A DNA stretch of 64,000 nt from Candidatus Enterousia sp. (GTDB taxonomy: Bacteria > Pseudomonadota > Alphaproteobacteria > Rs-D84): contig JAZLBQ010000026.1 of the NCBI GenBank assembly GCA_045613785.1, positions 80,677 through 144,676 on the forward strand. Direction: 5' to 3'. Numbering within the stretch: the stretch's first letter is position 1; every line of letters starts with the position of its first letter. Under the pieces are notes generated by a model that saw only the letters and a list, made by a program, of their open reading frames with translations, made no database searches and was not told the DNA's origin. Positions 31,770 through 53,886 of this stretch are shown here, in pieces. The position numbers and the translations under genes were made by a program.

Positions 31770-33032
31770 TTGGCCAATAATTTTATAACAGTTAATCGAA
31801 AAAAATACGCCGTTGGTCTGTTGTGGCAGCCCATTGGGGCTGGTTTTGCTGCCCGTGGTTATGCTCGCAATTTGTCCAAGAATATTGATAAAAAACTGAC
31901 CTTGTTCACAGAATATCGTTCAATGGTTGGTCTGTCATCACGTCGCAATGGTATTCATTCTGGAATGACCAGTGCTGCTGCTGATGTGATGGAAAGTTTT
32001 TCAGAATACACATCATTTATTGCGGTGTTTAATGTTGATAGCAAATATTACCTAGTTGCTGCTCGTAATGGGATAATTTTATCAGATGTTGTTTTTGATA
32101 ATGAACAAGATGCCCGCAATGAATATGTAAAGTTATCCGAGATTCCTGATTGGGGTGCGTTTTTTGCACCGTCTTCGTGGGGAATGCCACGTGCAGCAGA
32201 GCGAAATTTATCAGACTTATTAAACGGTCAATCGCACGCTGTATTGCGTCCAATCAGTCATTTGGGGGCAGGTGTTGTATCGTTGGTATTGTTGGGTATT
32301 TTTGCACTGGTCTTGGGGATTATTTTTCGTGATTCAATAAATCAGGCCTTTACCCCACGTCCTCAGGTTGCGGAACTAGATCCGGAATTGGTTGCAGAAT
32401 ACAAGCGTCAAATCGAAGAAAGCAGCAAGAAATTAGACCAGGAATACCAGATTGAAAAGGTTTTGCCACCAGAACCAATAGTAATGCCATATGAATTATT
32501 GCCTGATGTTGCTGCCCGTGCGGCTCAGTGTTATCAGGCGATTGGTTTTGTGATGCAGCCGATTCCAGGCTGGACACAAATGCGTGCGACGTGTGGTGAA
32601 ACACATGTTACTGCGGAATTTCGTCGCAGTTTTGGCACGTTGGGTGAGTTTTATAATATCGCAACAGAATTGATGCCTGCGTCATTTGTTGAAGAAGTAG
32701 ATGAAAACACAATTCGTATTCGTGCAACCTTGCCGACATTGGAATCATTTGCTTCTCAGGACGAACGAGATGCAGATACTGTTGTTCGTGATATAACAAC
32801 ATTGTTTCAGTCGATTGATACACCTGTTCAAACCCAGGTTGTTGTTGATACGCTGACCAATGGTGTTGACGTTGCGACAGTCAACGTCATAGAAGTTGGT
32901 GCAGAATCAAAACTGATTCCGACGCAGTTTATGGAAATTTTTAGTGAATTTGGCGGCGTTTATCTGATGCAGACATCATGGGACGTTCGCTCACGTTCTT
33001 GGAACTATGAGGTGGTAATCTATGCAAAATAA
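31770..33032 (+). CDS. Type IVb pilus accessory protein, PilO/BfpC-like
   Basis: N-terminal YAVGLLWQ motif, a central TM and C-terminal PIPGW...C; sits ahead of the ATPase and platform genes; TTG start. Confidence 0.65.
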   Translation: MANNFITVNRKKYAVGLLWQPIGAGFAARGYARNLSKNIDKKLTLFTEYRSMVGLSSRRNGIHSGMTSAAADVMESFSEYTSFIAVFNVDSKYYLVAARNGIILSDVVFDNEQDARNEYVKLSEIPDWGAFFAPSSWGMPRAAERNLSDLLNGQSHAVLRPISHLGAGVVSLVLLGIFALVLGIIFRDSINQAFTPRPQVAELDPELVAEYKRQIEESSKKLDQEYQIEKVLPPEPIVMPYELLPDVAARAAQCYQAIGFVMQPIPGWTQMRATCGETHVTAEFRRSFGTLGEFYNIATELMPASFVEEVDENTIRIRATLPTLESFASQDERDADTVVRDITTLFQSIDTPVQTQVVVDTLTNGVDVATVNVIEVGAESKLIPTQFMEIFSEFGGVYLMQTSWDVRSRSWNYEVVIYAK

Positions 33033-33729
33033 CAGCAAGTTTTTATTTGGTTTAATAATCAGTGGCACACTGTCTGTGTTTGGGGCTGCGCATTCAGCTG
33101 ACATTGTCGTTGATGAAGAAGTCGTGGACATTGACCTGGAACAGGCGTCTGCTGATGCGGTTGCTGATTACGACATCAATGGTTCGCTGTTTCAACAGAT
33201 AACCGACCTGGAACAGGAAAAGGTTTTAATGCAACTTGAAAAAGAGCGTGCTCAACTGGACTTGGAATTAGACAGATTAGCGGCAGAAAAAATAAAGTTG
33301 CACATGGAAATTGACACGCTTTCTGGTCGTGCAGAGCAACAGCAACAAGAAATTGAAACACAAAAGGCAAAACTAGAAGCCGAAGCTGCTCGTATCGAGA
33401 AAGAAAAAGATTCTTGGCTGGCGAAAATGGATGCCGAAGAATCCAAGTCATCAAAATCGACAAAAAAATCCAGCAGCAAAGATTCTGACGACGACGAAGA
33501 CGAAGACAGTGTTGATATAACAAAATTATATCGTCTGGTAAATGTTATTGGTGCTGGCTCTCAATTACAGGCAACAGTAGAAGATTTGAAAAGTGGTCAA
33601 AGCAAGCGTATAAGTGTTGGTCGCACATTAAATGGCTTGACTGTAAAATCTATATCGCTTTATGACGGCGTTGTATTTGTTGACGCCGATGGTAAAACCC
33701 AGAATTTGAACATCAGCAACGGAAAGTAA
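33022..33729 (+). CDS. Type IVb pilus biogenesis protein, PilP-like
   Basis: Signal peptide, coiled coil and C-terminal V.G.G..L.A....G..L.G..VKSI beta domain; synteny supports the call. Confidence 0.6.
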   Translation: MQNNSKFLFGLIISGTLSVFGAAHSADIVVDEEVVDIDLEQASADAVADYDINGSLFQQITDLEQEKVLMQLEKERAQLDLELDRLAAEKIKLHMEIDTLSGRAEQQQQEIETQKAKLEAEAARIEKEKDSWLAKMDAEESKSSKSTKKSSSKDSDDDEDEDSVDITKLYRLVNVIGAGSQLQATVEDLKSGQSKRISVGRTLNGLTVKSISLYDGVVFVDADGKTQNLNISNGK

Positions 33730-33733
33730 AATT

Positions 33734-35371
33734 ATGGTTGATTCAAAAGTCCAAGATTTTATTACAACTGATTCCACTACCCAGCCATCAATTCCTGCTG
33801 GGTTGGAAAATTCTGAAACCAAGGACATAATAGATTATCTGTTTTCCAATGGTAATCGTTTGCTGACAGCGACGGGTGCGATTCTAGAATTACCACGTGA
33901 TACCCAGAACTTGATAGCATATTTTACTGGTGGTGAAATAATTATATCACGCACCCATCGATATGACGGTCGTGTTTTATCATTTTTAGAATTGTTAAAG
34001 CAACGTGGTCGCAAAATACGGACACCGTTTTATTCAGATCTTGGGTTGATATCAAATATTTATAAATCGAACGAAATGCATTTGGGGGGGGCATCACGTT
34101 CACGTTCTGATTTTGATAACCAGATGCAGAAAGATTTTGTAGACATAATTGCCAAGGCTGCCGCTCGCAAGGTATCTGATATTCACATCGAAGTTGCGGA
34201 TCAAACAACGATATATTTCCGTGTTGATGGCAGTATACAGCCGGTATTAGAATATAACAGCCAGTGGGGCGAAGCATTTCTTCGTGCGGCTTTTGCGTCA
34301 TCTGATATATCCAATGCGAACTATGCTGTAAATGAATATCAGTCTGCCCAAAAAGATGGTCGCACGCCTTTGCGTGGAACCAAGGATTTGTATTTGCCAT
34401 CTGGCGTGCTGGGCGTTCGTATGCAGTTTAATCCGATTGCCTTTGGAACACGCTATGCGGTTCTGCGTTTATTGTATGACAATCCGTCCGAAGGAATCAA
34501 GATTGAACAGGAATTTGGGCCATATGAACAACGGTTGCTGGCTCGTCTGCGTTCTTTTCCAACAGGTCTGGTAATAGTTGCGGGTCCGACCAGTTCTGGT
34601 AAATCAACAACCCTTGTTCGTAATATGTCGCTGATGTTAAAAGAACATAATTACGAAATCAATATGATTACCGTTGAAAATCCAGTGGAACAAAAGATTT
34701 TTGGTGCACGTCAAATGCCTGTTGTAAATACCACAGACGAAGAGCAACGTGAAAAGAAATATGTAGAAGCCCTGGCTGCTGCATTGCGAAGCGACCCTGA
34801 CACATTGATGGTTGGCGAAATTCGCACACTTGCTGCGGCAGAATTGACTGTTCGTGGTGCATTGTCTGGTCATAACGTATGGACAACATTGCATGCAAAT
34901 TCAGCAATGGCGGCATTGACACGTTTGTTAGATTTGGGGGTAGAGGCATTTAAATTAAAAGAAGAAACCTTGATGCGTGGCTTGGTATCTATGCGTCTGT
35001 TTAAAAAGGTCTGTCCTCATTGTCGTGAACCCTTGGTCAATCATCCAGAGCGTGGTGCATATCGTCGTGTAATGGACGCATACGGTGAAATAGGGCTAAA
35101 CCAAATATATCAGCGTGGATCTGGTTGTCCACATTGTAATGGCACAGGGAACATTGGTCGTGTCAAGGCTGGTGAAATAATCATCACCAACAGTGAATTT
35201 TTACGTCTAGCATTATCTGGCAATACGGACGGTGCTGTCCGCTATTGGCTTGAAGAAATGTCTGGTCGCACATTAAAAGAAGCCGCCGCATCACTAATGT
35301 TGCAGGGTATAATCAGTGTAGATGAACTGGAACGTTGGGTCGGTCAACTTGATCAGCCAGGGGCGTATTGA
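33734..35371 (+). CDS. Pilus assembly ATPase (PilQ/BfpD, GspE-PilB family)
   Basis: SDIHI, FRVDG, GPTSSGKSTT, ENPVE, DPDTLMVGEIR, SGH.VWTTLHAN and two CPHC. Confidence 0.92.
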   Translation: MVDSKVQDFITTDSTTQPSIPAGLENSETKDIIDYLFSNGNRLLTATGAILELPRDTQNLIAYFTGGEIIISRTHRYDGRVLSFLELLKQRGRKIRTPFYSDLGLISNIYKSNEMHLGGASRSRSDFDNQMQKDFVDIIAKAAARKVSDIHIEVADQTTIYFRVDGSIQPVLEYNSQWGEAFLRAAFASSDISNANYAVNEYQSAQKDGRTPLRGTKDLYLPSGVLGVRMQFNPIAFGTRYAVLRLLYDNPSEGIKIEQEFGPYEQRLLARLRSFPTGLVIVAGPTSSGKSTTLVRNMSLMLKEHNYEINMITVENPVEQKIFGARQMPVVNTTDEEQREKKYVEALAAALRSDPDTLMVGEIRTLAAAELTVRGALSGHNVWTTLHANSAMAALTRLLDLGVEAFKLKEETLMRGLVSMRLFKKVCPHCREPLVNHPERGAYRRVMDAYGEIGLNQIYQRGSGCPHCNGTGNIGRVKAGEIIITNSEFLRLALSGNTDGAVRYWLEEMSGRTLKEAAASLMLQGIISVDELERWVGQLDQPGAY

Positions 35372-35372
35372 T

Positions 35373-36443
35373 ATGAATAAACTTGAACTGCTGTATGCAA
35401 AACTTGTATTCAGGTTAAACACTGAAAAGCGTATGTCGATTTGTCGCAAATTAGCATCGTTATTGCGAAATGATTTTACTTTGATAGATGCGCTGGAACG
35501 CCTTGAAATGGTTGAGTCAAAAAATGGCAAAGCACCACATGAACCATTTGCGATTGTTATGCGTCAGTGGCAAAAGAACTTGGAACAGGGTATGACTTTT
35601 TCCGAGGCTACTCGTGGTTGGGTTCCACCGAACGAAACGTTATTGGTAACATCAGGGAATTTATCAAATCTGGTAATTGCACTGGAAAATGTTGGTCGTG
35701 TTGTCGAAGGCACAACCCGTATTCGTCGTGCAATGACATCGGCGATTGGTTATCCGATGTTTTTGTTGGCGTTGACGTTTGGTATTATTATTATGGTTGG
35801 GCTTTATCTAGTTCCGCCATTGGCAGAAATTGCGGGTAATTCAGTTGTCTGGCGTGGTGCTGCCCGTTCATTGATATGGTTGTCTGATTTTTCTATTCAA
35901 TATTGGTATTTGTTTTTAGTTATTTTTGCCGTGATAGTATCAGTTATCTGGCTAAGTTTGGCAAATTGGTCAGGACGGATTCGTGTGTTTTTTGATAAGT
36001 TGCCACCGTGGAATGTTTACAAGATTCAAGTATCTGTTGGTTGGTTGATGTCATTGGCGGCAATGGTTGGTTCTGGTGTTACGATACCTGATGCCATGCG
36101 AATGCTGGCGGATAATGCCAACCGCTATTTACGCAGTATTTTAGATGCTGCCCTTCATCACATTGCCAACGGTGATAACCTTGGGGTTGCACTGACGCAT
36201 ATTGGGCGTGATTTTCCAGACAGTGAAATTATTGGGGATTTGACGATATATGCCGATATGAACGAATTTGATGAAAACCTGAATCAGATTGCGAACGATT
36301 ATCTAAACGAATCTGTCCGCAAGATGGAGCAGATATCAAACACATTAAACAGTCTGGGCATATTGCTAGTTTCTGCCATAATTGCTTGGGTTGTTCTTGG
36401 GACGTTCCAGATGCAAGATCAAATAACGTCTGCATTGACTTAA
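35373..36443 (+). CDS. Pilus inner-membrane platform protein (PilR/BfpE, GspF family)
   Basis: L.SLLRN....DAL, G.TFSEA...WVP.NE and three TMs; follows the ATPase; start at ATG 35373. Confidence 0.88.
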   Translation: MNKLELLYAKLVFRLNTEKRMSICRKLASLLRNDFTLIDALERLEMVESKNGKAPHEPFAIVMRQWQKNLEQGMTFSEATRGWVPPNETLLVTSGNLSNLVIALENVGRVVEGTTRIRRAMTSAIGYPMFLLALTFGIIIMVGLYLVPPLAEIAGNSVVWRGAARSLIWLSDFSIQYWYLFLVIFAVIVSVIWLSLANWSGRIRVFFDKLPPWNVYKIQVSVGWLMSLAAMVGSGVTIPDAMRMLADNANRYLRSILDAALHHIANGDNLGVALTHIGRDFPDSEIIGDLTIYADMNEFDENLNQIANDYLNESVRKMEQISNTLNSLGILLVSAIIAWVVLGTFQMQDQITSALT

Positions 36444-36466
36444 ATGAAAAGAAAAGCAAAATAAAA

Positions 36467-36482
36467 CCCGGCAAATGCCGGG
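36467..36482. repeat. CCGG-N6-CCGG element, copy 10 / bidirectional terminator
   Basis: CCCGGC-AAAT-GCCGGG between convergent genes. Confidence 0.65.
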
Positions 36483-36503
36483 TATTTTTATCTGAATCAA
36501 AGA

Positions 36504-37142
36504 TTATTTGTTTGGAATAATTTTCAATTCTACACGACGGTTTTGTGCACGGCCATTTGCATTTGCGTTTGAGGCAATTGGATTTGAAGAGCCCATACCC
36601 AAGACTTCGAAGCGTGAAGATTTGATTCCTTGACCTTCCAGGTATGAAGCCACAGACTGTGCACGCTGGCGTGACAGATTCAAGTTATATTCTGCACTTC
36701 CTGTGCTGTCAGTGTGTCCTGAAACCATAAGTGTTGAATTGTCGTATTTCTTTAATACCTTTGCGACAGAGTTTAATACTGGATAGAACGAAGCGTTGAT
36801 ATCAGCAGAATCTGTCTTGAAAGTAATGTTTCCTGGCATAATCAGGCGAATGCTGTCTTTGTCTTCGACGACCTGAACACCTGTTGAAACCAGTTCTGCA
36901 CGCAATTCAGCGGCCTGTGCATCCAAATAATATCCAACACCACCACCGACTGCACCGCCAGCCAATGCACCAATCAATGCCCCTTCGCTACTTTGTGTGC
37001 TGCCAATCAAAGCCCCAGATACTGCACCAATTGCAGACCCCCAAGTTGCTTTTGAAGTCTGTGTTTGACCTGTGTATGGATTTACGGTTGTGCAACCTGC
37101 GACCAGTGCTGTGATTGCAAAAACAGAAACTAATTTTTTCAT
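36504..37142 (-). CDS. OmpA-family lipoprotein with glycine zipper (YiaD-like)
   Basis: Lipobox VAGC, glycine zipper, GHTDSTG...NLNLS..RA.SV and NRRVE. Confidence 0.92.
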   Translation of the reverse strand: MKKLVSVFAITALVAGCTTVNPYTGQTQTSKATWGSAIGAVSGALIGSTQSSEGALIGALAGGAVGGGVGYYLDAQAAELRAELVSTGVQVVEDKDSIRLIMPGNITFKTDSADINASFYPVLNSVAKVLKKYDNSTLMVSGHTDSTGSAEYNLNLSRQRAQSVASYLEGQGIKSSRFEVLGMGSSNPIASNANANGRAQNRRVELKIIPNK

Positions 37143-37246
37143 ACTTTCTCCTTTATTGTTTGTGCTGATGAATATCATAGAACATAATTTTTTAAAACAC
37201 AAAAATAAATACCCACAAACGGGGTATTTTTTTATTTGACTAGGAA

Positions 37247-37444
37247 TTATTTATTTTTTTGTATTTGTTTAAAAACTGCTTGTTGTTTTAACAAATTCAC
37301 AGAATCGACTTGTTCTTTTGGTGTTTTGTTTGTATCAGAACTACCTAATTTCGAAGTAAAAATCGATTGGAGATGCATAACGATTGCGATTGCGACGCCT
37401 GCAACAACCATATATTCTAAAAATTCTTTTATATCTTTTTTCAT
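37247..37444 (-). CDS. Small hypothetical single-TM protein (65 aa)
   Basis: MKKDIKEFLEYMVVAGVAIAIVM..., with AGG upstream and a hairpin at 37207-37229 downstream. Confidence 0.5.
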   Translation of the reverse strand: MKKDIKEFLEYMVVAGVAIAIVMHLQSIFTSKLGSSDTNKTPKEQVDSVNLLKQQAVFKQIQKNK

Positions 37445-37504
37445 TATCAACCTATTTTGCAATTTATATTTCCAAAAAAAATCCGCCATTTGGCGGTGAA
37501 ATCT

Positions 37505-37581
37505 TGGTGGGTGTTGAGGGACTCAAACCCCCGACCCTCTCGGTGTAAACGAGATGCTCTAATCAACTGAGCTAAACACCC
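37505..37581 (-). tRNA. tRNA-Val(TAC)
   Basis: Reverse complement GGGTGTTTAGCTCAGTTGATTAGAGCATCTCG-TT-TAC-AC-CGAGA..GGGGGTTTGAGTCCCTCAACACCCACCA. Confidence 0.93.
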
Positions 37582-37619
37582 AAGGCTTTACAGCGAAACA
37601 AATATTATAATAAATTTTT

Positions 37620-38354
37620 TTATTTGTCCAGTATTTTTTTACCGTTTTCTAAATTTATGCTTTCATTGTCAACGATAATCAGATTGTTTTGCAAAACAGG
37701 CTGCTGTGCAGATTCAATCAAGGTTCGCCAATAAACATCTCCACTAGCGGTTTCAATGGCATAAAGATAATTGTCCGTGCCGACAACAAAGGCGTATTTT
37801 TCGGTCAGGACAAAAGGAACTGCAACCCCGATGTCCAGACACCACTTTTTGTCGCCTGTTGCGGCAGAAATCTTGCAAAACGCATCGCCCAAACCTCCTG
37901 CATACACCCATTTACCGTATGGGATAATTGGTGCTACAATATCAACAGTTGACGAGCCACCTGTCAAATTGCTGGCACGATATACATCTGCAATCCAGGC
38001 AATTTTACGTGTTTTTGGATTTATTTTGATAACTTCCCCAGTGGTCAAACCTGCATACAAGTATTGTCCGCTACAAACAGGTCTGCGATTTGCAGAAACA
38101 GTATCGCTGGTTGGGAATCCGCTAAAAATCTTTTTATCCTCTTCCCAGATAGTGTTCAAAGAATCCTGGCTATATGGGCATTTTGAATTATCGATAACGA
38201 TTTCGGACAGTGAAGTATCAGTAATTGATTTGTTTTGCACGATTACCTGTGTGTCTTGAAATACTGCTGTTCGGACACCTGGCAAAATAGGATCATGCTT
38301 ATCGCACGCCACCAATCCTAATGCACAACAAACAATACTGACAACTTTACGCAT
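37620..38354 (-). CDS. PQQ-like beta-propeller lipoprotein (short BamB-like)
   Basis: Lipobox LVAC, LPG.R, and repeated G...W blade motifs; downstream of a YfgM-like gene. Confidence 0.75.
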   Translation of the reverse strand: MRKVVSIVCCALGLVACDKHDPILPGVRTAVFQDTQVIVQNKSITDTSLSEIVIDNSKCPYSQDSLNTIWEEDKKIFSGFPTSDTVSANRRPVCSGQYLYAGLTTGEVIKINPKTRKIAWIADVYRASNLTGGSSTVDIVAPIIPYGKWVYAGGLGDAFCKISAATGDKKWCLDIGVAVPFVLTEKYAFVVGTDNYLYAIETASGDVYWRTLIESAQQPVLQNNLIIVDNESINLENGKKILDK

Positions 38355-38371
38355 CTTGACCGTCCTGTGTT

Positions 38372-39022
38372 TTAACGAATGCTTTGTGCTGTTGCAGAAA
38401 CGACATCTGGTGCATCTTTGTCGTTTATAATTTTATCCAGCCACTTATTTGCAACAGCAGTATTCCCATCAGCCAAATACTTTTGTGCGATGGTTAGTGT
38501 TGCAGTATAATAGAACGGTGAACTTTTAGTGTTCAAATCGTCTAAATAGTCTTCGACTTGTTCGGCGGTCATCTCATCGCCTTTGATTCCAATGACGTGC
38601 AATTTTGCCAAATCACGAAAATCAGGTGTATTTCCGTTGTTTGCCAGTGTTTCCAGTTTGTTCAAATCTTTATCAAGCAAATAAGCCTGGAACAATGCCA
38701 AATCAGCGGTTGCCCCAGATGTGTTTTTTGATAACGCAGCCAAAGCATTTGCATCAACGTTTTCAACGGCTGTTTCATATGCAGCAGCAGTTGCGATTTT
38801 GTTTGCCTTGTGTGTTCTGATGCCGATTTGAATTGCGGTTGTTGCAATCAGTATAACCAACGCTGTTGCCAAAATATGTTTAGAATACTTTTTGATAAAC
38901 TGCATAGTTTTTTCATTGTTCACATCTTCCCAGACTTCACGATAAAGAGCATCTTCCATATGTTCAGCGTGTGTTTTCTTAGGTGTCTTGACTTTTTTAT
39001 TTCTTTCCAGCATTGTTGCCAT
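38372..39022 (-). CDS. YfgM-like TPR membrane protein
   Basis: LYREVWEDV..EK...F.KKY followed by a TM and helical repeats; syntenic with the BamB-like gene. Confidence 0.7.
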   Translation of the reverse strand: MATMLERNKKVKTPKKTHAEHMEDALYREVWEDVNNEKTMQFIKKYSKHILATALVILIATTAIQIGIRTHKANKIATAAAYETAVENVDANALAALSKNTSGATADLALFQAYLLDKDLNKLETLANNGNTPDFRDLAKLHVIGIKGDEMTAEQVEDYLDDLNTKSSPFYYTATLTIAQKYLADGNTAVANKWLDKIINDKDAPDVVSATAQSIR

Positions 39023-39075
39023 AATCTAATCTCCTGTGCTTGAAAAATGTTAAATTTTGTTATACTATAAAATTT

Positions 39076-39990
39076 ATGAGCAAGGAAATCAAGACCACAA
39101 TACCATCAACTGCCAATACCAGTATTGTTGCTGCCCGTGGGGTCAGTGATGAATCTGGGTTGGCTCAGTATATTCAAACTGTGCAAAAGATACCGGTTTT
39201 AACGGCTCAGCAAGAATATGATTATGCTACTCGTTGGGCAAAGTCTCATGATTCTCATGCTGCGGAACAGCTGGTTGCCAGTCATCTGCGTTTGGTTGTA
39301 TCAGTGGCATACGATTACAAGAATTATGGTATTCCTGTTGGTGAATTGATTGCCAGTGGAAATATGGGGTTGATGCAGGCTGTTCAAAAATTTGACCCTG
39401 ACAAAGGATTTCGTTTTTCGACCTATGCGATGTTCTGGATCAAGGCCGAGATTTACGAAACTATATTAAACAACTGGTCGTTGGTTCGCATTGGGACATC
39501 TGCCAATCAAAAGCGTGTATTTTTCAATCTTGCCCGTGCCAAGCGTGCTTTGGGGATAATGGACAATAACCTGTCGGATGAGCAAACAAAACAGATTGCC
39601 GAATATCTAGAGGTTCCCGAACGTGATGTTGCCCGTATGGCGACTCGTATCAGTGCCCGTGATTTATCGCTAAACGCACCGATGAATTCAGATGATGGTT
39701 CGACAGATATCTTGTCAAATATGACTGCTGGTGGCGACACTATCGAAGAATCTTTGGAACAGGCGGAATTTCGACGTCTGGGAATGGGGTTGCTGAAAAA
39801 GCACTTGGAAAAAATGCCAGAGCGTGATCGTGCGATATTGACAGCACGTCGCCTGCAACAGCCGGCGGCAACACTTGAATCGCTGTCCCAGAAGTATGGT
39901 GTATCACGTGAACGTGTTCGTCAAATTGAAGAACGTGCCTATAACAAATTGCGTAATGCAATATTGGACGAAACCAAAGGACAATTTTAA
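39076..39990 (+). CDS. rpoH: RNA polymerase sigma-32 factor
   Basis: SHLRLV, FDPDKGFRFSTYAMFWIKAEI, RpoH box QKRVFFNL and GVSRERVRQIE. Confidence 0.92.
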   Translation: MSKEIKTTIPSTANTSIVAARGVSDESGLAQYIQTVQKIPVLTAQQEYDYATRWAKSHDSHAAEQLVASHLRLVVSVAYDYKNYGIPVGELIASGNMGLMQAVQKFDPDKGFRFSTYAMFWIKAEIYETILNNWSLVRIGTSANQKRVFFNLARAKRALGIMDNNLSDEQTKQIAEYLEVPERDVARMATRISARDLSLNAPMNSDDGSTDILSNMTAGGDTIEESLEQAEFRRLGMGLLKKHLEKMPERDRAILTARRLQQPAATLESLSQKYGVSRERVRQIEERAYNKLRNAILDETKGQF

Positions 39991-39991
39991 T

Positions 39992-41017: not shown

Positions 41018-41022
41018 AAAAT

Positions 41023-41038: not shown

Positions 41039-41044
41039 TTTTTT

Positions 41045-42975: not shown

Positions 42976-42993
42976 CTCTCTTTCCTTAGGGTT

Positions 42994-46061: not shown

Positions 46062-46147
46062 ACTGTTCAGTATAAAATATAACTTTTCCCTTTTCAAGAC
46101 TTGTGTGCGGACTTTTATTCTATAAAAAATCCCCCGACAAGGGGGCT

Positions 46148-46831
46148 TTACCGTGCAGGTGCAATTCGCAATTCAACCCGTCGATTAGTAAGGCGGCCAA
46201 TATCATCTTGTGCTGCGATTGGTCGTGCAGATCCACGCCCAACGATAAACAACCTTGTTGTATTTATGCCTTTTTCAGAAAAATAGACCCCGACACGCTG
46301 TGCCATATCCAATGATAATGCGTTTGCAGCATTTGTATCACGCATTGCATCTGTATAACCAGCGATTTCGATAAATGTAGCGTTGTATTTTTTCAAGATT
46401 TTTACGATTGTATTCAGTGTATCATCGCCTGTGATAGAAATGTCTGCGATATTCAGTTCCATAATCGCATCACGAACTAAAATAACTACAACGTCTGTTC
46501 CTGCACGCTGAACAGAAATTCCTGGTTTTCTCAGTGCGTCATATAACGCAAATTCCAGTTCTGCCATATATTTTGTTGCTATTGCATTGTCGTTTGCAAT
46601 TTTGTCGCCATATTCCATTTCGTCAGGCACCTTGACAGTTCCAGAAATCAATTCTCCGCCCGCTCCCAGATAAACAGGTCGCTTTGCCACCCTTGACATT
46701 TCGGTCATATCTGTAAAACTTGCCCCATTTAAATAATTGCCCCAGGTATATCTAGGCGGGCTAGAATAAGGTGCACACGCCACAGTGGCACACGACAAAC
46801 AAAATAATAAAAATAAGTTCTTTAACTTCAT
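46148..46831 (-). CDS. OmpA-family lipoprotein
   Basis: Lipobox TVAC, IAGYTD...N.LS..A..V and NRRVELRI. Confidence 0.85.
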   Translation of the reverse strand: MKLKNLFLLFCLSCATVACAPYSSPPRYTWGNYLNGASFTDMTEMSRVAKRPVYLGAGGELISGTVKVPDEMEYGDKIANDNAIATKYMAELEFALYDALRKPGISVQRAGTDVVVILVRDAIMELNIADISITGDDTLNTIVKILKKYNATFIEIAGYTDAMRDTNAANALSLDMAQRVGVYFSEKGINTTRLFIVGRGSARPIAAQDDIGRLTNRRVELRIAPAR

Positions 46832-47290
46832 TTATTCAATGACAAACGCAACCTGATTTGTGTTTGAATCAAAACAATTATCTGTCAGTCCTGTTTCAAA
46901 ACCGTTTACCAGCATTGCGGTTGCCCATTTTGGTTGTTTTGCAGAAAAATATTCACATTCATCTGACGATAAATCGACCAGATTTATTGAAAAAGTTTTT
47001 CCATCTGCACTGGATTCGACAGACCAGTTATCGCCACCCAATGGTGCTTTATCAGATTGCAACGCACCTGCTTTTATCAGATAGTCAATAGAAACCCCCT
47101 CATAAGTGCCACGCATTTCCAGCAACAGTTTTGTGTTTTGTGCGATTTGTTCCAATTCTGCATCAGCAATGGTTCGGATTTGGTTTGCTCGTATCATATT
47201 ATATATACCCAAACTAGCGACCGTCATAACCCCGGCGATTGCCATAACACCGATAACTTCGATTAAAGAGCGTCCAGATTCATTGTTCAT
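46832..47290 (-). CDS. Type IV pilin-like protein (PilS-like)
   Basis: Class III signal MNNESG|RSLIEVIGVMAIAGV, C-terminal AP.GG..F.I.L..L...EC...C; the ATG overlaps the dnaX stop. Confidence 0.8.
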   Translation of the reverse strand: MNNESGRSLIEVIGVMAIAGVMTVASLGIYNMIRANQIRTIADAELEQIAQNTKLLLEMRGTYEGVSIDYLIKAGALQSDKAPLGGDNWSVESSADGKTFSINLVDLSSDECEYFSAKQPKWATAMLVNGFETGLTDNCFDSNTNQVAFVIE

Positions 47291-48870
47291 TATTTTACCC
47301 CCACTATTTCTGCATTTTCGAACAGATTCATTGCACTTGCGACCAATGGGTCTGCTTCTAATTCTTCTTGTTTTTGTTCGCTGAAAGTATGCGTATGGAC
47401 AGATTCTGTTGCACGTTCCAATGCCCATTGTTTGCCTGTTTTATCGAACAGCCACGCACCCAGTTTGTGTGCAAAGTCTGCATCGCCCTTGCGGTCAAAG
47501 TATTTAATTTTACCGTCTTCAAACTCTGCAATTTCAATATTAGCACTGTAATAAGAATACAATAAAATTTCCTTGGTTTCTTGCAAGGCGGTCGCTAAAT
47601 CATTTGCAGACTTGATTACACGAAAATTCTTTTGTTCTGTTGCTTGGCTTGGTTGTGCTGATGGGGTTGCCCCTTGTGCCATACGGTCTGCAAAGATATT
47701 TTTTACTTCACGCACCCGATTAGCAGATTCTTGTTGTTTAATGATTTCTGGGATTGATGGCATATCTGCAATATGCATCATTCGCACCACCAGCATATCA
47801 AAACACTGTTTTTGGTTGCCAGTCGCTTGCATTTCTGGCACAGCTGCCACCATAACCTGCCAAATTCTGGACAGTGTATTTACAGAAATCCGTCCGTTCA
47901 AATTTTGAATTTGATCACGTTGGTCGGCGGTATAAGGTGAATTTGTAACATTGCCGGCATGCAGTGCTGGGTGCATACGTGTTGCCCAATGTGTCCATTC
48001 CATCATATCTGTCAGCAACATAGATAAATCAGCACCGTTATTATAAATCTCGTCAACTTTTTCCAGTGCGGCGGCAGTGTCTCCTGATAACAGTATTTTC
48101 ATAAAGTCAACGACCACAGCCCTGTCAGCACGTTTTAACATATCTAAAACAGCTTTTTCATCGACTTTGCCACCTGTTTGTGCGATTGCCTGATCCAGCA
48201 AGGACAAACCATCACGCACAGACCCGTCAGCCGCCCGTGCCAGTAATTCGTTTGCTTCATCACTCAGTTCGATATTTTCGTTTTCTGCAATCCAGGCGAA
48301 GTGCTTTTTTAATGTGTCAACTGGCACACGCACCAAATCAAAACGCTGGCAGCGTGAAAGGATTGTTACAGGCACTTTTCTAATTTCAGTTGTTGCCAGG
48401 ATAAAAATAACATGTGCTGGTGGTTCTTCCAGTGTTTTCAACAAAGCGTTAAATGCCGATATTGATAACATATGAACTTCGTCGATGATGTAAACACGAT
48501 ATCTGCCGTTTGTTGGTCTGTATTGTGCACCGTCCAGGATATCACGCATATTGTCAACACCTGTATGTGAAGCAGCGTCAATTTCCATAACGTCAATATG
48601 CTGACCTGCGGCAATAGCCCGACAATTTTCGCATTTGCCACATGGTGTTGCGGTTGCCTTGTCCCCAGACAGACAGTTCAAAGCCTTGGCCAAGATACGT
48701 GCCGTGCTGGTTTTACCCGTTCCACGGATACCAGTGAAAATATAAGCATGTGCAATACGTGAAGTATTGATTGCGGTTGTTAGTGTTTTGACTAATACGT
48801 CTTGACCGATAAGAGATTTAAAATCCTGACTGCGATATTTGCGTGCTAGAACTGTATAATTGTTTTCCAT
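47290..48870 (-). CDS. dnaX: DNA polymerase III subunit gamma/tau
   Basis: LARKYR, GIRGTGKT, a Zn site, EIDAAS, IIDEVHML and SRCQRF; start at ATG 48870. Confidence 0.96.
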   Translation of the reverse strand: MENNYTVLARKYRSQDFKSLIGQDVLVKTLTTAINTSRIAHAYIFTGIRGTGKTSTARILAKALNCLSGDKATATPCGKCENCRAIAAGQHIDVMEIDAASHTGVDNMRDILDGAQYRPTNGRYRVYIIDEVHMLSISAFNALLKTLEEPPAHVIFILATTEIRKVPVTILSRCQRFDLVRVPVDTLKKHFAWIAENENIELSDEANELLARAADGSVRDGLSLLDQAIAQTGGKVDEKAVLDMLKRADRAVVVDFMKILLSGDTAAALEKVDEIYNNGADLSMLLTDMMEWTHWATRMHPALHAGNVTNSPYTADQRDQIQNLNGRISVNTLSRIWQVMVAAVPEMQATGNQKQCFDMLVVRMMHIADMPSIPEIIKQQESANRVREVKNIFADRMAQGATPSAQPSQATEQKNFRVIKSANDLATALQETKEILLYSYYSANIEIAEFEDGKIKYFDRKGDADFAHKLGAWLFDKTGKQWALERATESVHTHTFSEQKQEELEADPLVASAMNLFENAEIVGVK

Positions 48871-48923
48871 AATAACCAACTTCCTTTTAGAACCAGCATA
48901 GCAAAACATCGTGAAATTTCAAC

Positions 48924-48955
48924 AAATAAAACGCACCCAAAAGTGCGTTTTATTT
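48924..48955 (-). terminator. Intrinsic terminator
   Basis: AAATAAAACGCAC-CCAAAA-GTGCGTTTTATTT. Confidence 0.75.
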
Positions 48956-48957
48956 AA

Positions 48958-49290
48958 TTATTTCAGGTTAGTAATAAAGTCTGGGAATCCAGGATCGTCA
49001 TCGTCCTGGGAATCGGCACCTTCTGAATCAGATTCTGTTTCAGCCTGTGCAGCAATTTCATTTTCTGCCTGTGCTGTGGTCTTGTCTTTTGGATCACGTG
49101 TTGAATCAATTTTACCTTGTTCAGCGTTTACCATACGACCATAATGCTCTGCTGTTTGCAACAAGCGTTCACGTTCGATTTCGTCAGCGGTCTGGCGTGC
49201 TTGGTCGATATATTGTTTTCTTTTTTGCCGCCACTTGTGGCAACGCTGTATCATCTGTCCGACATTGGATTGATTTTTTTTGTTTTGCAT
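48958..49290 (-). CDS. DUF4167-like protein
   Basis: Y...AR...D..E.E..LQ.AEHY.R motif and acidic tail PDFI. Confidence 0.6.
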   Translation of the reverse strand: MQNKKNQSNVGQMIQRCHKWRQKRKQYIDQARQTADEIERERLLQTAEHYGRMVNAEQGKIDSTRDPKDKTTAQAENEIAAQAETESDSEGADSQDDDDPGFPDFITNLK

Positions 49291-49434
49291 ATCTTTTCTT
49301 TTTCAACAGGAAACAATCTTATAACAACTACTACTTTTGTTGTTATGCTTAACGATGTCAATATTAAAACAAGTTAAAACTGATTGCAATAATTTTTTTC
49401 TGTTGCTAACCTAAGGTTTGTAGGAGGATTTATT

Positions 49435-50790
49435 TTGCATCAAGAACGTGGAAATTTCTTACTTCAAGCCCTGTTGGCACTGGGGTTGATTTTTGCGTTT
49501 ATTCCATTTTTGACTCGCAATATTGCAGGGCGTGAATCTGATGCACGAATGTATTCTGCTACCCGTCAGGTTGATTTGGCTCAAACTGCTGCACGTATAT
49601 TTATTCGTGAAAATGCTCGTGATATACCGTATGAAACAACGGTTGTATCTGGAAATGATTTTTCTGATTTGCTAGAACCATATGGTTTACCGCTAGGTTT
49701 TGTTCCACGAACTGCACTGGGGCAAGATATATCTTTGGTAATGCATAAAACGCCGATGGCTGTTTCTGCATATATAGAATTGTCTGGGGGTAATTTGTCT
49801 GATGTTTCACGTGCTGAACTGGCACGTCGAATTGGTTTTTATGCAAATGTTGTTGAAGAAAGTGTTCGTATTGGAATTGAACTGACCGATATTTATTCTG
49901 ATGTTGTTCGCAGGAACGAGCCGAATTTTGACAACAGTGGATTTTTATCAGACCTTGATATGGGAAATTTTGTTTTAGATAATGTTGGGAACTTGTTTGC
50001 ATTAAACGGTGAATTTAAAGGCGCTGAATTTAACACATTGACTATTTCTGGAATTGAAAGTGGCCGTGATGCTACAAATGAAATCAAGATGATGTCTGCA
50101 GCCAAGGCAGTGTTTCAAAGTAAAACTGGTGAATCGGCATTGACTTTAACACGTGGCACGCTTTATGCAGACGGTGTTCAAACACGAACAATATCAAATT
50201 TTGGGGATACAGGAAATTTTGTTGCAGATGATGTTTCGCTGTATGAAATATCGATGACTGCTGGTCGCACTGCTTTTACAGGGCCTGGCGATTGGTTGGT
50301 TCATGGAAATGTTGTATCAAATCGTGTTAGTCTTAGTGTTGAACGCCTGGACGTTTCATCTTATATAAATGTAACTCGTGGTCAAGACGTTTATATTGAT
50401 GGTGAAACACTGGAATATAATTCTAAATCAGGGATAGAGGTTGGCACTCTTTACACATCGAACATAACATTGCGTGATCAAACATCAAACGCCCTAGATT
50501 CTGGCAAGGCAGGTTCTGTAATATTAGATATTCGACCAAATGGAACAACGATGCTGCCAGACGTTTGGCTAGAAAGTGTAAATAATGATGATTTTGAAAT
50601 TATAGATACACCATCTGTGGACGACGGTAAAACAGTTTCGTGCGAGTCTATAATAAAAAATTTCGAGGGTGCATATAATAAACAATCGCTTTCTCAATAC
50701 CTGATATGTCAGTATGTTTATTGGCAGCGTCTGGAAAAGCGTATAAATATCAAACAGTGTTTAATGGCAGGTGGCAGTGGCTGTATGTAA
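49435..50790 (+). CDS. PilV-like minor (tip) pilin 1, with Gln at position +5
   Basis: AGGAGG then TTG start; G|NFLLQALLALG; YGLP.GF....LGQ; DLDMGNF.L.NV. Confidence 0.65.
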   Translation: MHQERGNFLLQALLALGLIFAFIPFLTRNIAGRESDARMYSATRQVDLAQTAARIFIRENARDIPYETTVVSGNDFSDLLEPYGLPLGFVPRTALGQDISLVMHKTPMAVSAYIELSGGNLSDVSRAELARRIGFYANVVEESVRIGIELTDIYSDVVRRNEPNFDNSGFLSDLDMGNFVLDNVGNLFALNGEFKGAEFNTLTISGIESGRDATNEIKMMSAAKAVFQSKTGESALTLTRGTLYADGVQTRTISNFGDTGNFVADDVSLYEISMTAGRTAFTGPGDWLVHGNVVSNRVSLSVERLDVSSYINVTRGQDVYIDGETLEYNSKSGIEVGTLYTSNITLRDQTSNALDSGKAGSVILDIRPNGTTMLPDVWLESVNNDDFEIIDTPSVDDGKTVSCESIIKNFEGAYNKQSLSQYLICQYVYWQRLEKRINIKQCLMAGGSGCM

Positions 50791-52009
50791 AACCAAGATT
50801 TTTTCGAATAACTCATCAGGTGCCAGTATAATGGAAGTTTTACTGGCTATGGCGATTATTGCGGTTGCTGCACCGTTTGTCTATAACCAGATTGCCAAAA
50901 CAAATCATACGATTCAGGATATTGCAACGGCACGTCGTATAATGTCTGTTCGTAATAATGCACTAAATTTTGTTCGCATGAACCAAGACAAATGGCCAGA
51001 CGTTGCCCAGATAAAACTTGATGAAACGGAACTGGAACAAATCAGTCCAGATGCGGCTGCTGGTTTTATTGATAAGTATTCTGTAAATGGTGCGTTTATT
51101 ACAGATGTTTATTTAGCGTTTGAATTAGCAAATTCTGAACTGAATACTAACAAGGTTGCTCGTCATATTGGTGGTGATGCGGCGGTTGTAGGGGAAGATT
51201 CTGTTGCTTATGGTAATACCTGGGCGGTATCTGCCCCTGATTTTGTTCCTGGGGATTTAATATATCGTATATCACGTGATGTTTCTGGCGAAGACACATC
51301 AAAATATTTGCATCGTGGCACATCAGGCGAAGACGAATTAAACGTTATGAAGCGTGATTTAGACATGGGGGGTCATAATATTTATAACGTTGCAATGATA
51401 ACGGGTGATTCTGCCCGGGCTAAGAACGCAAACACATCATTTTTGACATCAGATGATGTTGTTGCAAACACAATATATTTTTCATCTGGTGCAAACATTG
51501 ATGGCCAAGATGTTAGCATTGGGGATTTGCGTGTATCTGGTGATATGTCGGGGTTTCGAAATGTCAGTGCATTGCGTATCAATGAAGGCAATAAATTTAC
51601 GACATCTGGTCGGGTTATTGCAGACCGTGTTTCGGTTACAGAAAAGATAAACATCGGCAATAACCTAGTTTTAAAGTCAGACAGTGCCAGCACAATCAGT
51701 GGCTTTACAGGCGTTTCGGTCAGTTCTGTTATTGCCCCATATATATCTGCCGAAGAAATGATTTTTTATGAAAACTTTGGTTTGACAGTTTCGGGTGAAT
51801 TATTGATGTCAACGGTTTCACCTATAAAGATTGGTGATTGGGTTTTTCCATCGACCAAACCGCCACGTTTTTCTAAATTTACATTATCACGTGGTGAAAA
51901 TCCATCAGCACCCAAACGCAATGCTTTTGCACCATTGGTTCGCAGTGGTTGGTCTGAAACCGCAGACACGCCATCGACGATTTTACCAGTGTTGCCAACA
52001 AATAATTAA
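50771..52009 (+). CDS. PilV-like minor (tip) pilin 2
   Basis: G|ASIMEVLLAMAII; IGGDA; YLHR.....ELNVM.RDLDMGGHNI.N (shufflon N-terminal constant-region-like); exact start uncertain. Confidence 0.75.
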   Translation: MAVAVCKTKIFSNNSSGASIMEVLLAMAIIAVAAPFVYNQIAKTNHTIQDIATARRIMSVRNNALNFVRMNQDKWPDVAQIKLDETELEQISPDAAAGFIDKYSVNGAFITDVYLAFELANSELNTNKVARHIGGDAAVVGEDSVAYGNTWAVSAPDFVPGDLIYRISRDVSGEDTSKYLHRGTSGEDELNVMKRDLDMGGHNIYNVAMITGDSARAKNANTSFLTSDDVVANTIYFSSGANIDGQDVSIGDLRVSGDMSGFRNVSALRINEGNKFTTSGRVIADRVSVTEKINIGNNLVLKSDSASTISGFTGVSVSSVIAPYISAEEMIFYENFGLTVSGELLMSTVSPIKIGDWVFPSTKPPRFSKFTLSRGENPSAPKRNAFAPLVRSGWSETADTPSTILPVLPTNN

Positions 52010-52021
52010 ACAGGATAAAAA

Positions 52022-53338
52022 TTGAACGCACGAACCAAGATTTTTGCTAATAAGAATTCTTCTCAAGGCTCTATGCTGATAGAGTTGATGCTAAGCGTTG
52101 CATTGGCGGCTTTGATAATTCCGTATGCGTTTCGTTATCAGCAGTCTTCTATTTTGCGGGCTCAAAACATTGCGATAACAAATCAGATGACAGAAATACA
52201 GGTTGCGCTGGAACGGTATATAATTGCAAATCGTCCTGAACTATTGCGAACAGTTGGTCGAAATATTACACGGGTTAGTATTTCAGAACTTGAACCCTAT
52301 GGTTTGCCTGAAAGTGTCTTATCCCAAGGTGATGAAAAATATCAGTTGCGTATTTTGAAATCAACCGACATAACTGGCCCTTCGACTTTACAGGGTGTTG
52401 TAATTCGTGCATCTGATGACATTACTCCGCTTCGAACACGTGAAATTGTGAATTTGTCTGGTGGTTCGATGGGATTTATTGATGGCACACACGCATATGG
52501 CACATTTGGGGCGTGGCACACAGACAGCATAGATTTAGGTGTCGATACAGATAATGCGATTATTGAAACAACGTCGATAAATCGTGATAATGCACTGCAT
52601 TTATGGCGTGTTCCGTCAAATAATCCGGATGATGCAAAAATGCAATCGCCTTTGAATTTAGGTGGACACGACATAACAGGCGTAAAGTTTTTAAATGCAG
52701 ATTATACTGATTTTTCTGAACGTCTAACTGTTGATAAGACTGTTTCAAGTAATCTTATTTTTAGTAATCGGCCAACAATCAACAATGGCTTCAAGGTTGT
52801 TTCTGCGAACGTTTCTGGTATGTTATCATCAGATGCCAAGAATATGGAAATATCTGGCCAGTTGTCATTGGCTGATTTGGCCAAGATGTCATCACTAACT
52901 GCGGGCAATTTGTGGGTATCGAATTTGACTTTGGGAGGCTTGTCTATAGATTCCAGCAAAAAATACGCCTTGCTAAAAGTCAACCAAGCCCTTGATATGA
53001 CATCGGGTCATATTGATGCGATGTTTGTGTCTGTCGGTTTTACAGGCTCTATCACGCCACGCTTGATTGTTTATGATAAAGTTGTTGATTCTGTAAATTC
53101 GGACTATTACTGGGATGCGTCATTAAATCGAGCAAATTTTAATGATGCCTCATTTGTTGAATTAAATCGTATGGCGACCTTGGCGACAATATCCGAAGGC
53201 GATAAATCAACGGCATCAGGTCAAATATTTGGTTCTGTATCTGCGAACAAGAACGCAACGGTTGCGGATTATATGAACGCAATCCGTAAAATTCAAACCC
53301 AGGTTCAGGAAAAATATCGCTTGTTGAATTTAGAATAA
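52022..53338 (+). CDS. PilV-like minor (tip) pilin 3
   Basis: TTG start; G|SMLIELMLSVAL; YGLP; GG.MGFI.G..AYGTFGAW; LWRVP......MQSPLNLGGHDI. Confidence 0.75.
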   Translation: MNARTKIFANKNSSQGSMLIELMLSVALAALIIPYAFRYQQSSILRAQNIAITNQMTEIQVALERYIIANRPELLRTVGRNITRVSISELEPYGLPESVLSQGDEKYQLRILKSTDITGPSTLQGVVIRASDDITPLRTREIVNLSGGSMGFIDGTHAYGTFGAWHTDSIDLGVDTDNAIIETTSINRDNALHLWRVPSNNPDDAKMQSPLNLGGHDITGVKFLNADYTDFSERLTVDKTVSSNLIFSNRPTINNGFKVVSANVSGMLSSDAKNMEISGQLSLADLAKMSSLTAGNLWVSNLTLGGLSIDSSKKYALLKVNQALDMTSGHIDAMFVSVGFTGSITPRLIVYDKVVDSVNSDYYWDASLNRANFNDASFVELNRMATLATISEGDKSTASGQIFGSVSANKNATVADYMNAIRKIQTQVQEKYRLLNLE

Positions 53339-53358
53339 AATATGGTATAAATATCACT

Positions 53359-53886
53359 ATGAAAATAAAATGCGACTTTTGTAAAACAGAATATTCGTTG
53401 GACGAAAATCCAAATTCGTCGGTCAAATGTGCACTGTGTGGCAACACCTGGACGGTATCTGCACCGCCACGCAAAAATTCTATATTGATGTTTATTGCGT
53501 CATTGTGTGCATTGCTGTCGGCGATTGTATTTACTGCTGCGGTTATCACGCATCATCAGGCCAAGCGGGTTGTTCTTGGTCCATTGGTTGCGACAGTATC
53601 AGGTGTTGATACAATAACTGACGAAGAAGGCGTTTCGCACTTGGTGGTAAATGGCACGATTGAAAATATATCAAGCGAGATTTATGGTGTTCCTGATTTG
53701 ATAATTGTTTCGTCTGACCAAGAGGGGCGTGTTTTAGCACAACAGAAGTTTATGCCATCAGCAACATTGCTAGATTCTGGTGCGACTGTAAATTTTCGTC
53801 ATATGTTATCGCCTCAGCCTGCTGGTGTAAAAAAGATATCTGCACGGTTGGCTGATTTACAAGTGCCACAAGGGGATAAAAAATGA
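53359..53886 (+). CDS. Zinc-ribbon + TM + DUF3426-like protein (ZitP-like architecture)
   Basis: CDFC..Y.......VKCALCGNTW, a TM, then LVVNGTIEN....VPDL.....D..G..L. Confidence 0.7.
   Translation: MKIKCDFCKTEYSLDENPNSSVKCALCGNTWTVSAPPRKNSILMFIASLCALLSAIVFTAAVITHHQAKRVVLGPLVATVSGVDTITDEEGVSHLVVNGTIENISSEIYGVPDLIIVSSDQEGRVLAQQKFMPSATLLDSGATVNFRHMLSPQPAGVKKISARLADLQVPQGDKK

Follow-up and report, generated by a model that had tools for sequence, protein, structure and literature searches.

Type IVb pili constitute a clade of type IV filaments, and the model used to detect them allows their genes to be spread over several loci with the prepilin peptidase standing alone, according to the part of Denise et al. 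2019 available to us (PMC6668835). Among the described members, the toxin-coregulated pilus (TCP) has no retraction ATPase and yet retracts, as stated in the accessible portion of PMC5207764, while CofB is the trimeric initiator at the tip of the CFA/III pilus (CFA, colonization factor antigen), as stated in that of PMC6048534. The genes considered here are those of a type IVb pilus in Candidatus Enterousia, an alphaproteobacterium of the order Rs-D84, and are partly encoded in a stretch of 64,000 nucleotides (the window; positions 80677-144676 of contig C26) from a 1.04-Mb assembly of 26 contigs that is 96.5% complete (G000). The window holds three of the five pilus loci of this genome. Judging from family matches, trees and folds, the genes encode a type IVb pilus system, and its distribution indicates that this system is old and vertically inherited in Rs-D84. 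With a probability of roughly 0.8, it is a complete, chromosomally fixed pilus of Rs-D84 ancestry that works, has evolved and is used in the way proposed below.

The extension ATPase encoded in the window is closest to that of the bundle-forming pilus (Bfp): among PDB entries BfpD is the best match, over the full length and with 258.7 bits (33% identity, covering 92% of the length), compared with 158.5 bits for GspE and 152.5 for PilF. Its best full-length matches on plasmids (31-35% identity; Bosea, Methylovorus, M. extorquens, bfpD of enteropathogenic Escherichia coli (EPEC), and P. aeruginosa) all lie in loci with TcpQ, PilN, PilO2 and PilP, and the GspE matches in the plasmid set cover only ~65% of the query. 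In two IQ-TREE runs (53 and 47 rows, quick search, reference sets that contained neither MshE nor TcpT), with support from the Shimodaira-Hasegawa-like approximate likelihood ratio test (SH-aLRT), the ATPase fell inside the type IVb group in both trees, with GspE, HofB and PilB-like sequences split off at SH-aLRT 95-99. PilQ of IncI plasmids was placed in another starred subclade, together with sequences from E. cloacae, pY89 and Methylovorus, and BfpD in a different subclade too. More generally, the phmmer scores of the components are higher for their Bosea and Bfp counterparts than for those of IncI, as for the platform protein (Bosea PilR 228 bits, BfpE 194, IncI PilR 112).

The five mandatory parts of such a system (pilin, peptidase, ATPase, platform and secretin) are all present, distributed over contigs C26, C24 and C3. 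In the window, the genes for PilO, PilP, ATPase and platform form a unit of four overlapping or abutting genes at 31770-36443 (+), with terminator-like hairpins on both sides. The ATPase carries a Walker A motif (GPTSSGKS at 284-291) and two CPHC motifs (at 427 and 465), PilO reaches 71.7 bits against Bosea PilO2 and 21.2 bits against BfpC, and the PilP-like gene has the position between pilO and the ATPase gene that it has in the IncI, pY89 and Methylovorus loci. Outside the window, family searches found a single secretin in the genome (on C24), directly upstream of which lies the gene for a 315-aa TcpQ-domain protein (E 7.6e-18), i.e. in the position of PilL/BfpG. The T2SSE family has two members genome-wide, the pilus ATPase and a VirB11-like one, which means that there is no PilT/BfpF-type motor, no Tad system and no type IVa system; by the family searches, this genome has no type IV filament system besides the type IVb pilus.

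The small, candidate major pilin has a type IVb fold. In a Foldseek search with its AlphaFold2 (AF2) model (pLDDT 83.8), all 13 matches listed up to rank 15 were type IVb pilins, among them TcpA (E 4e-5, TM up to 0.77), the type IVb pilus of enterotoxigenic E. coli (ETEC; E 8.7e-5), CofA and PilS of S. Typhi, and against the Pfam PilS profile it scored 17.2 bits, under the cut-off of 22. Its ATG overlaps the TAA stop of dnaX by one base (TAATG), and a promoter-like site lies at 47321-47292. The gene for an OmpA-domain lipoprotein follows, with a terminator-like hairpin behind it (46145-46131), and the adjacency of pilin and OmpA is kept in the two genus members G004 and G013. Scanning the whole genome for class III signal peptides gave five prepilins, four of them in the window and the fifth a second small pilin on C24. 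Metatranscriptome contigs from one run cover the pilin (46754-47251, 3 differences in 498), dnaX, V1 and V3; because the data are contigs, bins without cover (e.g. 51908-52699) and depth are uninformative on expression.

The remaining three prepilins in the window, V1, V2 and V3, are large and belong to the PilV family. When alignments of their orthologues were compared by hhalign with an alignment of five annotated PilV proteins, the first 220-235 columns aligned, and the signature LYR…PELN.M…DMG.NNI.N is common to V1-V3 and the PilV constant region; no alignment to PilV was obtained for the C-terminal halves. Pfam and NCBIfam scans of V1-V3 gave nothing at E 0.01 (V3 reached 23 bits against Shufflon_N, PF04917, under its cut-off of 27.5), and the link to PilV is therefore visible by profile-profile comparison only. 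Each of the three is orthologous over all six sampled Rs-D84 families, with its own conserved N-terminal sequence. The N-terminal domain of the AF2 model of V3 is pilin-like (VIA gave Z 8.0 with 9iuf_A, the type IVb pilin of ETEC, 7.9 with PilM 3eoi and 7.5 with TcpA). Residues 194-367 may be beta-solenoid-like, a weak reading given that Foldseek returned no match for the V3 model in the PDB at E <= 0.001 and that VIA Z was 8.0 at most.

A complex model of the C-terminal parts (V1 165-451, V2 180-412, V3 195-438) supports the prediction that the three proteins form a heterotrimeric fibre: the ipSAE values are 0.80, 0.82 and 0.69 (median 0.80) compared with 0.00, 0.00 and 0.03 in the controls, and the 1282-1408 contacts extend along most of the chain lengths, with a partner pLDDT of 60-74. 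In calibration, 58 of 80 solved complexes attained this ipSAE mark, as did 2 of 110 mismatched pairs.

All genes listed in a first-pass annotation of this DNA, which had been made without database searches, were recovered where it had placed them, according to the open reading frame (ORF) list and profile scans. Its pilO-P-Q-R-like operon is borne out by matches to PF06864, TIGR03021 (just under the cut-off), T2SSE and T2SSF, its coupling of a pilin to dnaX by the one-base overlap, and its three PilV-like genes by the homology to the PilV constant region (hhalign probability 98.6-99.1%). As to its remark on terminators of one style, hairpins of the terminator type do flank the pilO-R unit. It had also stated that secretin and prepilin peptidase lie outside the window, and the genome search found both elsewhere, on C24 and C3 respectively.

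The pilus is order-wide. An ATPase orthologue was found in 39 of 41 relatives (a count that omits one VirB11-only match), the two without it being 70% and 72% complete, and V3 in all 41. Across the six families of the order, ATPase identity amounts to 75-90% inside the genus and 50-57% from family to family, compared with 47-79% and 19-28% for V3. The genes TcpQ-PilN-PilO-PilP-PilQ-PilR are contiguous in seven of eight genomes from five other Rs-D84 families (f2-f6), the exception being G029, in which PilN is not adjacent. The same operon occurs in five genomes outside the order (families f29, f44 and f112; 1.1-1.4 Mb), with ATPases 49-52% identical. None of the eight other-family Rs-D84 genomes has a pilin within ±20 kb of the operon; in the sister-lineage genomes G078, G063 and G254, small pilins starting G/RSMIEMLGVLAI (the slash marks the end of the leader) directly follow pilR. 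The ATPase tree recovers Rs-D84 as a monophyletic group (97), with the f29/f44/f112 clade as its sister (98, joint node 99; all three starred), and the Rs-D84 clade is not nested among plasmid sequences. Descent from or to plasmids is supported in neither direction. Of 401 alphaproteobacterial genomes sampled, 42 (including the unpublished G080) had PilO-family genes in a six-frame search with PF06864, and chromosomal type IVb pili are therefore not rare in Alphaproteobacteria; the count is a lower bound, as the search missed G000 and the other three Rs-D84 genomes in the draw, and it is uninformative on Rs-D84 itself.

Within Enterousia, the operon has been broken up. PilN or TcpQ lies within the flanks of pilOPQR in none of 80 Enterousia loci, so that the split into L-N and O-P-Q-R is genus-wide, and since seven of the eight other-family genomes keep the contiguous operon, the scattering is a lineage-specific rearrangement. 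Both flanks are as in the window in only 2 of the 80 loci, while in at least 40 pilOPQR lies between orthologues of C26:48165-51236 and C26:41417-46108, and pilOPQR and the V1-V2-V3 trio may be as close as 15 kb or over 100 kb apart, depending on the genus member. In the present genome, the unit at 31770-36443 appears shifted by ~65 kb relative to the commonest arrangement. By profile scans, the pilus modules of the window are separated by core genes (OmpA, BamB, rpoH, a porin, rlmN, a SurA-like gene, lptD, lptG and dnaX), and GC content is even over the pilus region and matches the surroundings. The genome has two tyrosine recombinases (C24:9923-10423 and C12:44407-44862), neither of them on C26 and both remote from every pil locus. 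Among the window ORFs scanned, neither relaxase nor replication genes were found.

These results support in part the first-pass annotation, which had taken the genes for a domesticated plasmid pilus in R64-type order. The ATPase tree that it had suggested as a check places the enzyme in the type IVb clade, apart from GspE and PilB, and its broader picture of a fixed chromosomal type IVb system of the PilL/N/O/P/Q/R and PilV kind holds, as does its remark that mobile-element genes are missing nearby: none was seen among the core-gene neighbours, and the contig has no integrase. Presence over related metagenome-assembled genomes turned out to be order-wide. The L-N-O-P-Q-R order, by contrast, also occurs in Bfp and in type IVb loci of the integrative and conjugative element (ICE) type and is not R64-specific, and domestication from a plasmid finds no support in an ATPase that does not stand beside IncI PilQ but in a clade of its own with other small-genome alphaproteobacteria. 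The interleaving with rpoH, lptD and rlmN is real here, yet restricted to this genome and a small number of close relatives (2 of 80). None of the outcomes that it had named as fatal to its reading was observed (an ATPase grouping with the type II secretion system (T2SS), type IVa or MSH pili, a genome without secretin or peptidase, or a patchy distribution within a recognisable mobile element).

From these parts a mechanism may be proposed. A short A24 peptidase without methyltransferase domain would cut leaders of 6-17 residues off the five prepilins, and a BfpD-like ATPase on the PilR platform would, with PilO and PilP, polymerise the small TcpA-fold pilin. The filament would leave the cell through the lipoprotein secretin of the PilN/BfpB family, aided by the TcpQ-domain protein (PilL/BfpG-like). 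V1, V2 and V3, probably ancient duplicates within the PilV family, would prime the filament and cap it as a 1:1:1 heterotrimeric tip fibre made of their fast-evolving, probably beta-solenoid C-terminal parts. Retraction, if any, would be motor-free as in TCP, because no PilT/BfpF-type ATPase is encoded. The system would have been inherited from the ancestor of Rs-D84 and its small-genome alphaproteobacterial sister group, with TcpQ-PilN-PilO-PilP-PilQ-PilR as the ancestral operon, and in Enterousia this operon would have been cut into cassettes that are still moving round the chromosome. Its likely use would be in attaching to and recognising the cell on which a metabolically dependent bacterium lives, possibly together with the scattered Vir-type type IV secretion system (T4SS); a partnership of thin pilus and T4SS as on IncI plasmids is conceivable. 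We infer the assembly order, the tip position, motor-free retraction and the attachment role from homologues (for tip and retraction from the available parts of PMC6048534 and PMC5207764, for host dependence from PMC12306168). Attachment to a partner fits a pilus that is the sole filament system, is kept in a ~1 Mb genome and has fast-evolving tip proteins.

Rs-D84, including Candidatus Enterousia, is common in human, livestock and termite guts, with genomes of ~1 Mb and no amino acid, nucleotide or lipid synthesis. For this lineage without nucleotide synthesis, living off other cells has been proposed, with no contact structure named, and in the same work type IV pili are mentioned only for another lineage, UBA9783 (PMC12306168). 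In the literature searched, no mention of pili in Enterousia or Rs-D84 was found, although the supplementary tables of PMC12306168 and PMC6668835 may list pilus genes. An order-wide, complete type IVb pilus would thus be a concrete candidate for the contact organ of Rs-D84, with the V1-V2-V3 tip as candidate specificity determinant and the pilin as a handle for finding the partner. It is also an example of a canonical single-operon machine that was broken into movable cassettes during genome reduction. A doubtful, though not negligible, extension is that Rs-D84 and its sister group are contact-dependent epibionts or parasites, in which the fast-evolving PilV-trio tip sets partner specificity and the pilus brings the partner to the equally conserved, scattered Vir-type T4SS; if true, the chromosome would carry an equivalent of the thin pilus and T4SS that are paired on IncI plasmids and ICEs, with feeding in place of mating as its purpose.

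Several points weigh against such a pilus or parts of its proposed working. The organism is uncultured and its pilus is known here from genes alone, while the support for expression consists of contigs from one RNA library (share 0.29) that may include carried-over DNA. The classically expected single locus with the pilin inside the cluster is replaced by five loci. The small pilin, with a 6-residue leader, Arg at +1 and 146 mature residues, is unlike classical type IVb pilins in all three respects; it lacks the long leader and large mature size of a classical type IVb major pilin, though its fold is still type IVb, and leader length is called non-discriminatory in the portion of a review at hand (PMC10191384). 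PilM gave no match to PF07419 genome-wide at E <= 1, a search that a strongly diverged PilM could escape, and no lytic transglycosylase was found inside a pil locus. The NCBIfam equivalog cut-offs are reached by no pilus part (ATPase 216.7 compared with 630 for GspE; PilN 237.6 compared with 287.65), for which reason the names of the parts rest on family-level matches, trees and folds. As for the tip, the beta-rich middle of the V3 model that resembles a solenoid is poorly predicted (pLDDT 30-60), unlike the confident helical end, and the V1-V2-V3 model used its own alignments and three chains, unlike the calibration. Moreover, V1-V3 are paralogous, so that close cousins of a true partner may pass as well, and the controls comprised no homotrimers. 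Finally, ComEC is encoded at C4:94490-95308 (E 7.8e-53), so that DNA uptake keeps some, if small, probability.

It is hardly credible that the pilus came recently from a conjugative plasmid or ICE of the R64/PAPI-1 type, would still reside in or be just freed from a mobile element, and serves mating. The nearest annotated loci do lie on plasmids or ICE-like regions with replication or transfer genes (Bosea pBSY19_1, Methylovorus pMsip01, IncI pIFM3804 and P. aeruginosa pY89), with which gene order and the PilV family are held in common, and the genome contains a VirB4, VirB11 and VirD4 set. A recent arrival is nevertheless at odds with a presence throughout six families at identities that descent predicts (within the genus as well as between families), with an Rs-D84 clade that is monophyletic and not nested among plasmid sequences, with a contig that has no integrase and scanned window ORFs without relaxase or replication gene, and with a GC content that does not deviate and PilV genes that have no shufflon recombinase next to them.

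The two other explanations concern function. Because an exported protein is encoded beside the trio and ComEC is present, pilus-dependent secretion and DNA uptake stay as minor rivals of the attachment pilus. A secretion device like the T2SS or like TCP/CFA-III (TcpF/CofJ), exporting small proteins such as the 152-aa neighbour of the trio, is improbable. The exported protein (53883-54341) is indeed kept beside the trio in the genus and near it in family f3, the pilin leader is short as in pseudopilins, and in V. cholerae and ETEC the type IVb pilus exports a same-operon protein that binds the trimeric minor pilin (as far as the available parts of PMC6048534, PMC9565799 and PMC10120004 go); ATPase, secretin and pilin fold, however, are of the type IVb kind and not those of a T2SS, and secretion and adhesion do not exclude each other in the known systems. 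Still less probable is a pilus that takes up DNA and feeds it to ComEC, supplying nucleotides or genes, even if ComEC is encoded, the lineage lacks nucleotide synthesis (PMC12306168) and the genome has no second type IV filament system. The known transformation pili are type IVa or Com pili, according to the part of PMC6668835 at hand, and neither a recognisable DNA-binding minor pilin nor a retraction ATPase is found here. The attachment pilus proposed above is the preferred explanation.

Features of the type IVb pilus system and its neighbourhood (positions refer to the window unless preceded by a contig; in pilin starts the slash separates leader and mature protein).
Position	Strand	Feature	Evidence or remark
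31663-31682		terminator-like hairpin	sequence scan; before the promoter-like site, 5' of pilO
31707-31736	+	promoter-like site TTGCCT-18-TATAAT with TG	consensus scan only; 34 nt 5' of pilO
31770-33032	+	PilO (PilO2/BfpC-type assembly protein), 420 aa	PAP_PilO PF06864, E 7e-9, 35.4 bits (cut-off 26.7)
33022-33729	+	PilP-like protein with signal peptide, 235 aa	NCBIfam TIGR03021, E 4.8e-8, 34.1 bits (under cut-off 34.65)
33734-35371	+	type IVb extension ATPase (PilQ/BfpD-type), 545 aa	Pfam T2SSE, E 1.3e-61
35322-36443	+	platform protein (PilR/BfpE-type), 373 aa	Pfam T2SSF, two stretches
36466-36483	.	bidirectional terminator-like hairpin	closes the pilOPQR unit
46148-46831	-	OmpA-domain lipoprotein	Pfam OmpA; directly 3' of the pilin
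46832-47290	-	small (candidate major) pilin, 152 aa, MNNESG/RSLIE, Arg +1, Glu +5	class III signal peptide scan, fold
49435-50790	+	V1, PilV-family large minor pilin, 451 aa, MHQERG/NFLLQ	hhalign to PilV 99.1%, E 6e-19, ~225 columns
50771-52009	+	V2, PilV-family large minor pilin, 412 aa, …SSG/ASIME	hhalign to PilV 99.0%, E 9e-18
52022-53338	+	V3, PilV-family large minor pilin, 438 aa, …SQG/SMLIE	hhalign to PilV 98.6%, E 8e-16
53359-53886	+	zinc-ribbon/transmembrane/DUF3426-like protein (ZitP-like architecture), 175 aa	TIGR02098, 22.3 bits (cut-off 20.9)
53883-54341	+	exported protein of no known family, 152 aa	profile scans, signal scan
C24:73480-75108		PilN-family lipoprotein secretin, 542 aa	NCBIfam PilN family, E 2.3e-70, 237.6 bits (MshL 96.9); lipoprotein-type signal
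C24:93926-94390		second small pilin, MNQESG/RSMIE	between uvrC-like and RluA-like genes
C3:105015-105485		A24 prepilin peptidase, 156 aa, standing alone	Pfam A24, E 9e-16, GLGDIKL motif

The arrangement around the trio is conserved to some extent. The block OmpA-pilin-dnaX / V1-V2-V3-ZnR-p152-rluD is kept in both genus members examined (G004 and G013), where the zinc-ribbon gene directly follows the trio; in G040 it lies ~4 kb after it. The product of this gene (53359-53886) has an N-terminal zinc ribbon of the MJ0042 type and one transmembrane segment, with matches under the threshold to Zn_ribbon_4 (24.3 bits compared with 30.3) and DUF3426 (E 0.015, 15.8 bits compared with 27.7). Within the genus the gene for the exported 152-aa protein remains next to the trio, and in family f3 it is near it. 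Behind rluD, the window encodes a 1068-aa protein (55387-58593, +) with faint Pfam matches (glycine zipper; DotZ, E 0.007); conserved counterparts with ~51% identity also follow rluD in G004 and G013.

Some further observations concern the pilins. At mature position 5, V1 has Gln in Enterousia (NFLLQ) and Glu in orthologues of other families; in TcpB, Glu5 is required for retraction and dispensable for assembly, as reported in the available part of PMC5207764. The sister-lineage genome G063 (f29, 1.4 Mb, 87% complete; e.g. loci L186 and L190-L193) gave 34 separate matches to the V3 profile, mostly to the first 60-190 residues of ORFs 400-740 aa long that are scattered over many contigs, which looks like a large expansion of PilV-like pilin N-domains on varied C-terminal parts. 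An Enterousia-type ATPase (83% identity) was also found on contig CAVGNU010000019.1 (L087), which is filed as Bacteroides fragilis and is probably a binning or labelling error.

Elsewhere in the genome, the prepilin peptidase heads a co-directional run (C3:100109-105485) with four genes whose products are exported or rich in Gly. The last of these genes (C3:100109-101236) encodes a GH108 lysozyme domain with PG_binding_3 (E 3.6e-14); its product is possibly a stand-in for the lytic transglycosylase of the R64 and Bfp loci. The two genes just downstream of the secretin (C24:75549-76952) code for a small exported protein and for a Gly-rich one of 330 aa. Homologues of VirD4, VirB4 and VirB11 lie at three separate places (25059-27308 (+) in the window, C26:61309-61821 and C3:523-1518); the type IV secretion system is thus no less dispersed than the pilus.

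ZitP of Caulobacter is a zinc-finger polarity protein that also controls pilus biogenesis, acting on Tad pili. The protein encoded behind the trio resembles it in its zinc ribbon, its one transmembrane segment and a weak DUF3426-like C-terminus, and is encoded beside pilin genes, but differs in that its DUF3426 match stays under the threshold.

Compared with the thin pili of IncI1/R64 and of the PAPI-1/pKLC102 type (here pIFM3804, pY89, pMsip01 and pBSY19_1), the Rs-D84 system has the core order TcpQ/PilL-PilN-PilO-PilP-ATPase-platform in common, and the Enterousia system further holds in common with the R64/IncI type PilO (PF06864), a secretin of the PilN family and the PilV constant region. 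R64 is not known to have a PilT-type ATPase, and Enterousia has none either. The differences are considerable, however: the Enterousia system is chromosomal, vertically inherited and spread over five loci instead of being part of a conjugative element, has three fixed PilV paralogues and no Rci-like recombinase nearby instead of one gene with a shufflon, and its ATPase falls outside the IncI PilQ subclade. PilM was not found, the peptidase (156 aa) stands alone and the pilins do not follow pilR.

The Bfp system of EPEC (bfpA-L on pMAR2) is nearer in several of its parts. BfpD is the best solved relative of the Enterousia ATPase, and the likeness extends, in bits, to TcpQ and BfpG (57), PilN and BfpB (149), PilR and BfpE (194), PilO and BfpC (21) and the peptidase and BfpP (24); both systems also have three minor pilins. 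In contrast to Enterousia, the Bfp system includes BfpF as a retraction ATPase, its minor pilins BfpI, BfpJ and BfpK are small, PilV is absent, and all its genes form a single plasmid operon. With TCP of Vibrio cholerae and CFA/III of ETEC, finally, Enterousia has in common the TcpA/CofA fold of its small pilin and a large minor pilin that consists of a pilin domain with a C-terminal extension. Its leaders, however, are short, and these extensions would be beta-solenoid-like (at low confidence) and not lectin-like. Whereas the CFA/III tip protein CofB is a homotrimer, the tip predicted for Enterousia is a heterotrimer of three paralogues, and such a heterotrimeric PilV tip would be a form undescribed for type IVb pili.

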